DNA of 11,536 bases, taken from the IMG/VR virus record IMGVR_UViG_2690316205_000005, one strand, 5' to 3'. Origin of the DNA: a virus. Taxonomy: Duplodnaviria; Heunggongvirae; Uroviricota; Caudoviricetes. Positions 1-3,000 of this stretch are shown here, piece by piece. Position 1 is the stretch's first letter. Every line of letters starts with the position of its first letter. A program made the position numbers.

Positions 1-3000
1 CCTCAAAAACACCATCATACACTAAATCAGTAAGTTGGCAGCATCACCAGCCTTCTTGAGGCTACCACCTGTTTTCAGGTGTCATTCAGACGTGATTTGC
101 CCCAGATTGGGAAAGCACGCTTTTTTCTCAGCTATCGTCCTCTTATTTTGCCGTTACATTTCTTTTTGCATTCTAATGATTAATTTACAATAATAATATC
201 GGTAATTATTGAGTAATAATAAATTAATTATTGCAAATGTAATTTAATTCCATCTTCGCGTTATATTCCAATCTTTAATCTCCGCATGGAACAAGTTGCA
301 TGCGTGACTATATTAAGACGACTTATAACCACCAAAACATTTGCTTTGCAAGCAAAAACAGTGACCATTGACTCTAAGAAAATTCCGATCTATTGTTAGG
401 GTCATCAAAGTTACTTAACAGTATTCCGAAATGAAAATACAAAGCAAGCTAATTGTCTTATTAAACATTATTATTGCATTTATATTATTTGAGCTTTTAG
501 CTCAAAAATTTGGTTTGAGTACATTATTTTAAAGCAAGATAAACAATATCGGGCACTCTAGTTTTTATAATTAACAATTAAACGTCCATAAAATGTTATT
601 TACTTTTCTTCGCTATTGTCATATCTTAATATAGTGGCTTACGCCACTCTACTTTCATCACATTTTGTACGTTTATGTACTCGCCATGAAGCTCTTTCAT
701 GGCGATTTTTTATTCTTAATCCAAGAACATACTCCCTACCTATAGCAAAATCACTTTTTTAACAAAAGAATAACGTATTTAGGTAATCATTACGAATTTA
801 CCCTATAGGTGCTACTGGCCATTCAATATCCGGTGCAGTTGATGTATCAACACGGTTCAGCAACACCCGATACTTTTTCCAAGCTTCCAGCAACAAGGTT
901 TCTTTCTCCGTTGCGATCTCCAGATCCACAGCATCCTGAAGCGGCGCTATATGCTCACTGGCTACCTGCATCAGGCTGTTTTTTGTTTCTTCCGCCTCCC
1001 GGATCCGGAACAGTTTTTCTGCTTCCGTATCCTTCACCCAGGCTGTGCCGTTCCACTTCTGAAACTCCCCTTCCGGGGATAACCAGGTGACATTTTCCGG
1101 TAATGAGCCGAGTTCAGAAATAAATAACGCGTCGCCGGAAGCCACGTCATAAACCGTTTTACCCCGATGATCTTCAACGAGATGCCACGATGACTCATCA
1201 CTGTTGAAAACAGCCACGAAACCAGCCGGAATATCTGGCGGTGCAATATCGGTACTGTTTGCAGGCAGACCTGTATGAGGCGGAATATATGCGTCACCTT
1301 CACCAATAAATTCATTAGTTCCGGCCAGCAGGTTATAAATTTTTATGGTCCGTGCTTGTTCACTCATTCTGAATGCCATTATGCGAGCCTCACAATATAG
1401 TTAAATGCGATGTTTTTGACGGTGTTTTCCGCGTTACCAGCAGCGTTAACGGTGATGGTGTGTCCATGTGAACCAATCGCAACAGAGTGCGTATGAGCAC
1501 CAATACCGACAGTATGCGCGTGTGCACCCGCAGATGCTGCTGTGCCGGACAGTGAGTGTGTATGGTTTCCTTCTGAAGATGATTTACCTACCCATTGGGA
1601 GGTGCCACTGGTTAATGAGCCACTGATACCAACCTGATTAGTCCCGCTAACTTGAGTACTCCCTGCCGGAAACATTCCAGTAGGTTGACTCCCGCTATTC
1701 GTTCTGGGCCCAGTCTGACTATGTTGGTGGGCCCCAGCTGAACTTGTAGAGCCGCTCAGACTGTGCGTATGCGCCCCGGTGTTATTCGTGGATTTAGTGC
1801 CGTAATCAAACGACGATGTGGTTTTCGTCCCCAAATCCGTACTGGATGCGCTGGCGCTGTGGGTGTGCGATTTAATGCCATCCTGTTCCTGAGACAATAC
1901 GGCACGACCACTGGCGGGCTTGCCCTTAATCGTCCAGCCACGCATATCAGGGATCACGCCTGACGGATAAGCGGCTGCAAGTTTCGGGTAAGCAGATTTG
2001 TCAAAAGTCTGCCCCTGCATCAGGGCATAACCAGACGGAACGGTATCTGATGGCCACGGGATTGGTGCACCGACTGGATAAAACTCTGCAGGAGGATGAG
2101 CCGAGGTGTAAAGCTGCGCCCACGGCGACCAGTTTGCGTCGGTCGTATCCCGTCGTGAACGAATAAATGCCGGAGCATGAGCACCGCTTGTACCACTCCA
2201 GCCGATGAGTAACTCACCTTCGCCAACGGCTGTCATCCCTTTCAGGTGAATGATATTTCCATACGCTGTTGGATATCCGTTGTTATACACCTCGTATAAC
2301 TCAAGACCTGCTGCCCCCTGCGTATTGTCTGTCAGCGCGGCTACCCGACCTTTTGAAGCCAGATTAACTGATGATACTGCTGTTCCACCTGACGGTAGCG
2401 CCCCGATCTCTGATGCCGTTGGCTTATTTCTGGAGTTATAGTCCCTTCGCCAGCCAGGTGAATAATCTGTTCCGTGATTAATATAGGTAAACTGGGCGTT
2501 GGTTGTTCCGCCACCGCTGGATGTGGTCGGAGTGGTAATGCGGATCGTCATCGCTGACTTTATCCCCATTACTTCAATGACAGCTCCGGCGAGATGAATA
2601 TTACCGCAGCCAGTATCAGTAATGATTTTATTATTGCCATAAGACCAGGAACCCTTGCACATCCAGTATGGATGGTTAAATGCTCCCTGAGAATCCAGCC
2701 ACTCGATAAACTGTGCAGTCGTCCAGTTTCCTGTTGTTGTGCTTACTGACCCACCGAAGGCACGGCAGGCACCAATATTTTTCGTAAAGGTGTCTTTGCC
2801 AGGGATATCCGCACCGTTCTGATCTTTCTGCAGACGTTTCTCAGCATTGTCATTGGCTGCTTTTACTGCCTTTGGCGTTGCCGCCAGCGTTTCAGACGTG
2901 CTGTTGGTCGCGCTGCTTAGCTGGATTATCCCTTTCTGTGCTGTCGTTGCATCCTGTGCGGTGTATTTCCCGTTAGCCAGGTCATACGCGGCCTTAACGG

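Follow-up and report, generated by a model that had tools for sequence, protein, structure and literature searches.

The window, that is the whole stretch of 11,536 nucleotides (nt) analysed here (IMG/VR virus record IMGVR_UViG_2690316205_000005, Caudoviricetes), carries on its minus strand the distal tail module of a lambdoid phage. According to the listing of open reading frames (ORFs) and to DNA matches to lambda, the end of H is followed by M, L, K, I, J, lom, stf and tfa. The present work concerns stf, the gene of the side tail fibre, in which an earlier note, made from the sequence alone, had seen an extra central domain of about 250 amino acids (aa). We found this stf to be an allele of the lambda-family side tail fibre that is mosaic, common and already catalogued. 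As judged from the alignments, its central segment adds no domain; it replaces the hinge and distal coiled coil of lambda Stf and is made up of two independent modules, D1 and D2. The features of the fibre locus are the following.

1379..4468, minus strand: stf, lambda-type side tail fibre, 1029 aa counted from a GTG (ORF listing, Pfam, alignment with Ur-lambda Stf)
4061..4462, minus strand: N-terminal anchor, aa 3-136, which joins the fibre to the tail tip (PF08400, E = 1.4e-71)
3089..4060, minus strand: Ala/Ser/Thr-rich proximal coiled-coil shaft, aa 137-460 (alignment with Ur-lambda Stf, composition, domain map of PMC12617516)
2834..3088, minus strand: two Phage_fiber_2 repeats and the start of the NGADIP-bearing linker (PF03406 in two stretches, E = 6e-37)
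2393..2833, minus strand: D1, globular fibre domain of the Mu S' / P1 S' / P2-like H type, aa 546-692
2084..2392, minus strand: D2, predicted small beta-sandwich knob domain, aa 693-795
1829..2083, minus strand: collar domain, aa 796-880 (PF07484, E = 7e-12, Pfam span aa 800-847; aligns with T4 gp37, 2XGF, and with lambda Stf)
1382..1828, minus strand: His-rich needle and tip, aa 881-1029 (2XGF match, HxH motifs)
798..1379, minus strand: tfa, tail fibre assembly chaperone and partner of the Stf tip (ORF listing, 92.8% DNA identity to lambda tfa, same annotation in related genomes)

Both ends of the protein identify it as a lambda-type Stf. The prophage tail fibre N-terminal anchor family PF08400 scored 239 bits against a cut-off of 26.6, and in a search of PDB sequences aa 3-96 matched the solved N-domain of lambda Stf (9E7M, E = 1e-51). 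The collar and needle, aa 796-1029, matched the tip of T4 gp37 (2XGF, E = 1e-81); of the seven HxH motifs in the fibre, six lie in the needle and tip and the seventh, at aa 868, in the collar. Tfa is encoded next to the tip, and the order J-lom-stf-tfa is also found in phage PhiR42_1 and in a prophage of E. coli O78 at the lambda attachment site. The true start of the gene is probably the ATG at 4462, which yields MAVKISG as in lambda, and the His-rich needle and tip are likely the receptor-binding end. The gp37 needle is said to hold seven iron sites, as reportedly described by Bartual et al. in 2010. With anchor, shaft, collar and tip, and Tfa partner all matching lambda, the mosaic lambda-type fibre of the earlier note was borne out, and the motifs it had quoted are all present: the duplicated KGI(V/I) at aa 468 and aa 512, within the fibre repeats, the conserved block at aa 796 and the His-rich tip. 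The NGADIP motif is found at aa 551-556, just within D1. An exact-sequence look-up of the whole Stf in a protein collection returned no identical stored protein.

As the lambda reference we used the 774-aa Ur-lambda Stf, restored by joining orf-401 and orf-314 of lambda over the known frameshift. By tblastn, lambda matched aa 1-406 and aa 797-1029 of the window Stf and no other part of it, and in the global alignment aa ~501-797 showed no similarity to Ur-lambda Stf. The segment, proposed to be foreign to lambda Stf, is indeed so. At the same position lambda has a block of its own of about 137 aa (LDSPALTGTPTAP...GAGENSAF), which is absent from the window Stf; the swapped region measures ~297 aa here against ~137 aa in lambda. 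In the domain map of Ur-lambda Stf, established by electron cryo-microscopy and cryo-tomography, the hinge spans aa 394-422 and the distal coiled coil aa 423-525 (PMC12617516). Neither tblastn nor global alignment detected this hinge and distal coiled coil (aa 394-531) in the window Stf. Since the block that lambda has at this position is missing here, the sequences argue for a replacement of lambda aa ~394-531 and not for the addition of a domain. This stretch is a trait of lambda itself and not of the whole family, many members of which have other centres.

The excess of 255 aa over lambda is accordingly not one domain. About 105 of these residues belong to the Ala/Ser/Thr shaft (aa 306-410, window 3239-3553, a stretch without lambda counterpart); the swapped region contributes on balance about 160 more, and small indels in the tip offset part of the sum. 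The segment itself, aa 540-795, is real; the coordinates first given to it, 2085-2850, are one base off at each end and, read as such, run out of frame with 8 stop codons, the segment in frame being 2084-2851.

The impression that parts of the coding sequence of the segment are AT-richer than the rest of the gene was correct, but the effect is weak. The segment has an overall GC content of 50.5% against 61.9% for the shaft, and the difference arises mainly at codon position 2. The shaft, with 36.7% Ala, has a GC content of 0.775 at this position, its excess there being due to a composition of 37% alanine. At codon position 3 (GC3) the values are 0.47 for the segment, 0.525 for the shaft, 0.48 for the tip and 0.46 for tfa. 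The lower GC content of the segment thus mostly reflects amino-acid composition. A foreign origin deduced from GC content was considered and rejected, as GC3 is alike in segment, tip and tfa.

The crystal structure of Mu tail fibre S' (gp52, PDB 8JU3) contains a counterpart of D1 in residues 178-330, with ~80% identity (E = 1e-70), and both its sequence and its predicted fold match this distal domain of Mu S' and P1 S' (8JU3 residues ~178-330). To date, no fibre other than Mu S' is known to show this fold. In an AlphaFold2 (AF2) model of aa 530-800, D1 was predicted with confidence (predicted local distance difference test, pLDDT, 75-89), whereas the model was poor outside D1 and had a mean pLDDT of 65.6. 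Our conclusions on D2 are drawn from a separate AF2 model of D2 and not from that of the whole segment. This model has six strands, a pLDDT of 79.7 and a predicted template modelling score of 0.72, and suggests that D2 may be a beta-sandwich resembling the knobs of gp34 or of pyocins. No significant match to D2 was obtained among PDB sequences, also when a profile was used. The sole PDB matches to the D2 profile, fibronectin type III domains of the leptin receptor (E ~1), share a WSxW-like strand and were taken as chance. The Pfam family PF21446 (Gp34_trimer) stayed below its gathering score on aa 656-715, which span the junction of D1 and D2 (18.4 bits against 27, E = 0.003); this weak match is the only sequence signal for a likeness to gp34 and agrees with the model. 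A search of a large protein set with D2 only added little alignment depth, as it returned just 26 short fragments, several of them frameshifted.

D1 and D2 close with similar C-terminal motifs of 13 and 15 residues. Their independence became apparent from phage P1 (locus L004, 3501-4436 and 7158-7478): in P1 S' the order is D2, D1, a Mu-type knob and the tip, and because the order of D1 and D2 is reversed there, the two are best seen as independent beads. On these sequence grounds we regard the segment as two modules and not as one domain of ~250 aa. A second copy of D2 was observed in the alternative S variable part of P1, inside the inverted repeats of the C segment.

The blocks shared with other fibres were mapped by tblastn of the window Stf against fetched loci.

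PhiR42_1 (PV340562, Stf of 1025 aa) and SPF_0923 (ON032529, Stf of 1008 aa): aa 1-1029 shared, 93% identity
E. coli O78 prophage at the lambda attachment site: aa 1-545 and aa 786-1029, with a different centre, 96% and 77%
P2-like fiAA91-ss H: aa 423-689, 74%
Mu and P1: aa 546-689, 71% and 82%
P1 S and S' (D2 copy): aa 684-789, 64%
K-12 Qin remnant: aa 709-1029, 86%

The ends of these blocks are not scattered. They cluster at aa ~545, 689-692 and 789-796, where in every case a conserved linker is found, and such swapping of modules at conserved motifs is the classical picture of tail-fibre evolution. An account by Sandmeier from 1994 is said to describe tail-fibre evolution by this kind of exchange. 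The breakpoints are natural splice points and could guide the design of chimeric Stf proteins for lambda-based delivery particles. The picture of exchange at conserved motifs dates from Haggard-Ljungquist et al. 1992, which is cited in PMC12143355.

The allele is widespread. The whole gene of 3,090 nt was at least 80% present in 636 of the 5,426 complete E. coli genomes, about one in eight, with up to 98% identity; the 768-nt segment reached a coverage of at least 80% in 800 of them and was partial in 1,598. Among phage records, the lambdoid PhiR42_1 and Salmonella phage SPF_0923 contain the segment in full, with 99% identity. In a search of 1.84 billion representative proteins it matched 1,029 clusters at 50% identity, 702 of them at E <= 1e-10; the matching proteins were 92-3,594 aa long and several had multiple copies. 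As the segment sits at the same position in ordinary lambda-family Stf proteins such as those of PhiR42_1 and SPF_0923, it is a common variant, and the view of a notable mosaic had to be given up. The discovery value is small: the exchange of fibre modules has been textbook matter since the early 1990s and the allele is already contained in annotated phage genomes.

Conservation differs strongly along the fibre. Identity to the Stf proteins of PhiR42_1 and SPF_0923 is 98.6-100% for D1, 99% for D2, 98-99% for the collar and 98-100% for the fibre repeats, then 94-96% for the shaft and only 67-72% for the needle tip. D1 is moreover 71-86% identical across the fibres of Mu, SfMu, P1 and P2-like phages of E. 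coli, Shigella and Yersinia, which bear quite different tips, and is contained in many P2-like H proteins. The divergence of the needle tip suggests that the prophage of this strain is specific for another receptor allele. Since D1 and D2 are conserved where the tip diverged, they would be structural knobs of the distal shaft, specificity residing in the Tfa-assisted needle tip. The contrast of conserved knobs and variable tip shows where host specificity should be sought.

Taken together, we consider it likely that the window holds an ordinary, widespread allele in which the lambda hinge and shaft part were exchanged for a cassette of repeat, D1 and D2, the latter two being structural. The cassette, made up of the second fibre repeat, D1 and D2, would have taken the place of the hinge and distal coiled coil (lambda aa ~394-531), probably by recombination at the short conserved linkers that bracket the modules, namely the fibre repeat, NGADIP..F..NIGA, W...Y(N/T)S..(K/P)P.A and GAPIPWPSD. 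Three Stf chains would form a trimer, in which D1 and D2 could act as rigid knobs that define fibre length and geometry and contribute to the register of the chains. The collar and the T4 gp37-like needle, folded with Tfa, would make the contact with the host, and by likeness to lambda Stf and T4 gp37 the receptor is expected to be a porin and/or lipopolysaccharide (LPS).

Some observations weigh against this interpretation. When the profiles of D2 and of the second Mu S' knob were compared, the alignment was limited to the last 30 residues and its probability was 34%. D1 lies inside the variable segments by which Mu and P1 switch host range: it opens the variable host-range part of Mu S' and is found within the variable part of P1 S' as well. 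The segment is also rich in aromatic residues, with 8 Trp and 10 Tyr, and a share in binding is conceivable. D1 and/or D2 might form a second, lateral receptor site that would recognise, for instance, sugars of the LPS core or the O-antigen, so that the phage would attach at two points, the needle binding a porin. Homology does not settle function for D1, given that its fold is known from the Mu fibre only, and in the RBPseg atlas the pyocin knob and distal gp34 domains are mobile modules common to fibre classes, the function of such abundant mobile fibre domains being given as unknown (PMC12143355). We nevertheless think a lateral site unlikely. D1 and D2 stayed 99-100% conserved while the tip fell to 67-72%, D1 is kept at 71-86% identity in phages with different hosts and wholly different tips, and the order of the two modules is interchangeable. 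The same conservation pattern speaks against the second receptor-binding module that had been suggested at the outset. An accessory role of D1 in sugar binding has a slightly poorer chance, and its more specific form, a conserved accessory sugar site directed for example to the enterobacterial LPS core, is clearly improbable. If it were true, lambda-type Stf, Mu and P1 S' and P2-like H would share a foothold of low specificity before the tip engages.

That the long Stf is an assembly chimera of several stf paralogues from a draft genome appears very improbable to us. In its favour, a scaffold join in J lies within the same window, and E. coli genomes matching stf hold a median of 3 stf-like places. 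Closed genomes and complete phage genomes, however, share the full architecture, with a DNA identity of 96-98% over 94-99% of the gene, the protein is 93% identical end to end to its phage homologues, and the reading frame is unbroken through every module junction. The proposal of an enzymatic module (depolymerase or glycosidase), which has only a general precedent in the enzymes of certain tail fibres and tailspikes, is effectively refuted: the matches of the segment in Pfam and PHROGs (21 families in the latter) are all to tail fibre families with no enzyme family among them, the fold matches are to phage-fibre shaft and knob domains only, with no catalytic beta-helix, glycosidase or lyase domain found and no hydrolase or lyase fold standing out, and modules of ~150 and ~100 aa are far below the size of a beta-helix depolymerase domain.

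Several observations concern the neighbourhood of the gene. Gene J is interrupted by a run of N at 6475-6541, the flanks of which (6387-6629) are two diverged copies of ~85 nt, about 85% identical; the interval 5700-7300 measures 1,446 nt in closed E. coli genomes and 1,601 nt in the window. The arrangement resembles a scaffold join in which contig ends overlap, perhaps the ends of two different J alleles. Because of this assembly join, stf and the tail genes upstream, in the other half of the window, may not be physically linked. The gene lom (4561-5043, minus strand) has, compared with lom of PhiR42_1, an 83-nt deletion between CTGGCG direct repeats. The resulting frameshift leaves 160 aa instead of 199 and removes the last beta-strands, and the truncated lom is probably a pseudogene. 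The Rfam family IS009 (RF02111) matched 838-1036 on the minus strand with 218 bits against a gathering score of 117, wholly inside the 3' part of tfa; this model may simply capture conserved tfa coding sequence.

Downstream of tfa, positions 1-797 of the window are AT-rich (29-37% GC) and contain no ORF of at least 60 aa. The region 1-900 was at least 80% present in 284 complete genomes, and some part of it matched a median of 11 places per genome; the repeat would be the end of an IS1, located at the left edge of the window. The spacer is bordered in E. coli O78 strain 3 by tfa on one side and an IS1 on the other, ~2 kb from ybhB and the bio operon, which places the prophage at the lambda attachment site. 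In PhiR42_1 (locus L002, 8134-8724) and in K-12 Qin (locus L003, 4626-5216), a gene for a serine recombinase of the PinQ/PinR type comes right after tfa; it is absent from the window, where the AT-rich spacer is found instead.

Among known systems, Ur-lambda Stf shares with the window Stf the N-terminal anchor, with 7 differences over 98 aligned residues within the first 100, the Ala/Ser/Thr coiled-coil shaft, a fibre repeat, the collar, the HxH tip, Tfa and the place after J and lom. It differs in having one fibre repeat and not two; the window Stf, in turn, lacks the hinge and distal coiled coil and has the second fibre repeat, D1 and D2 instead. The tips are ~70% identical with several indels.

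With Mu the likeness is confined to the middle of the fibre, where fibre repeat, NGADIP linker and D1 are collinear with residues 97-330 of Mu S/S' at ~70-80% identity; aa 492-567 align with Mu S residues 97-172. The Mu and P1 proteins, however, are fibres of myovirus baseplates and differ at the N terminus and in the tip; the segment that holds their variable part (G or C) is invertible and comes with gix or cix sites and an invertase. In the window there is no gix-like site within 3 mismatches and no recombinase ORF. We rejected a relic invertible segment at the D1 junction in the absence of a gix-like site: the domain is shared, the switching system is not. In Mu the NGADIP linker of ~30 aa is doubled around gix (G segment, locus L006, 1-130), whereas the window Stf has a single copy (aa ~537-567, window 2770-2860), as if the gix-containing interval had been lost through recombination between the two linker copies.

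The T4 long tail fibre provides the counterpart of the distal end, its gp37 needle (2XGF) matching aa 796-1029 and sharing the HxH motifs. T4 spreads its fibre over four proteins, and neither the C-terminal knobs of gp34 (5NXH) nor the pyocin knobs (6CL6, 6CU2) have significant sequence similarity to D2. In the K-12 Qin prophage (stfQ-tfaQ-pinQ), an identity of 86% to the window Stf extends over most of D2, the collar and the tip, and tfaQ follows, but the remnant is cut inside D2 by a deletion that fuses it to nohA, leaving it without anchor, shaft and D1. The closest systems are PhiR42_1 and SPF_0923. Their Stf proteins differ from ours in the shaft and above all in the needle tip, and PhiR42_1 further by the recombinase gene after tfa, while they have the same module order from end to end, the same J-lom-stf-tfa arrangement and, at the same position, a D1-D2 segment that is 98.8-99.6% identical.

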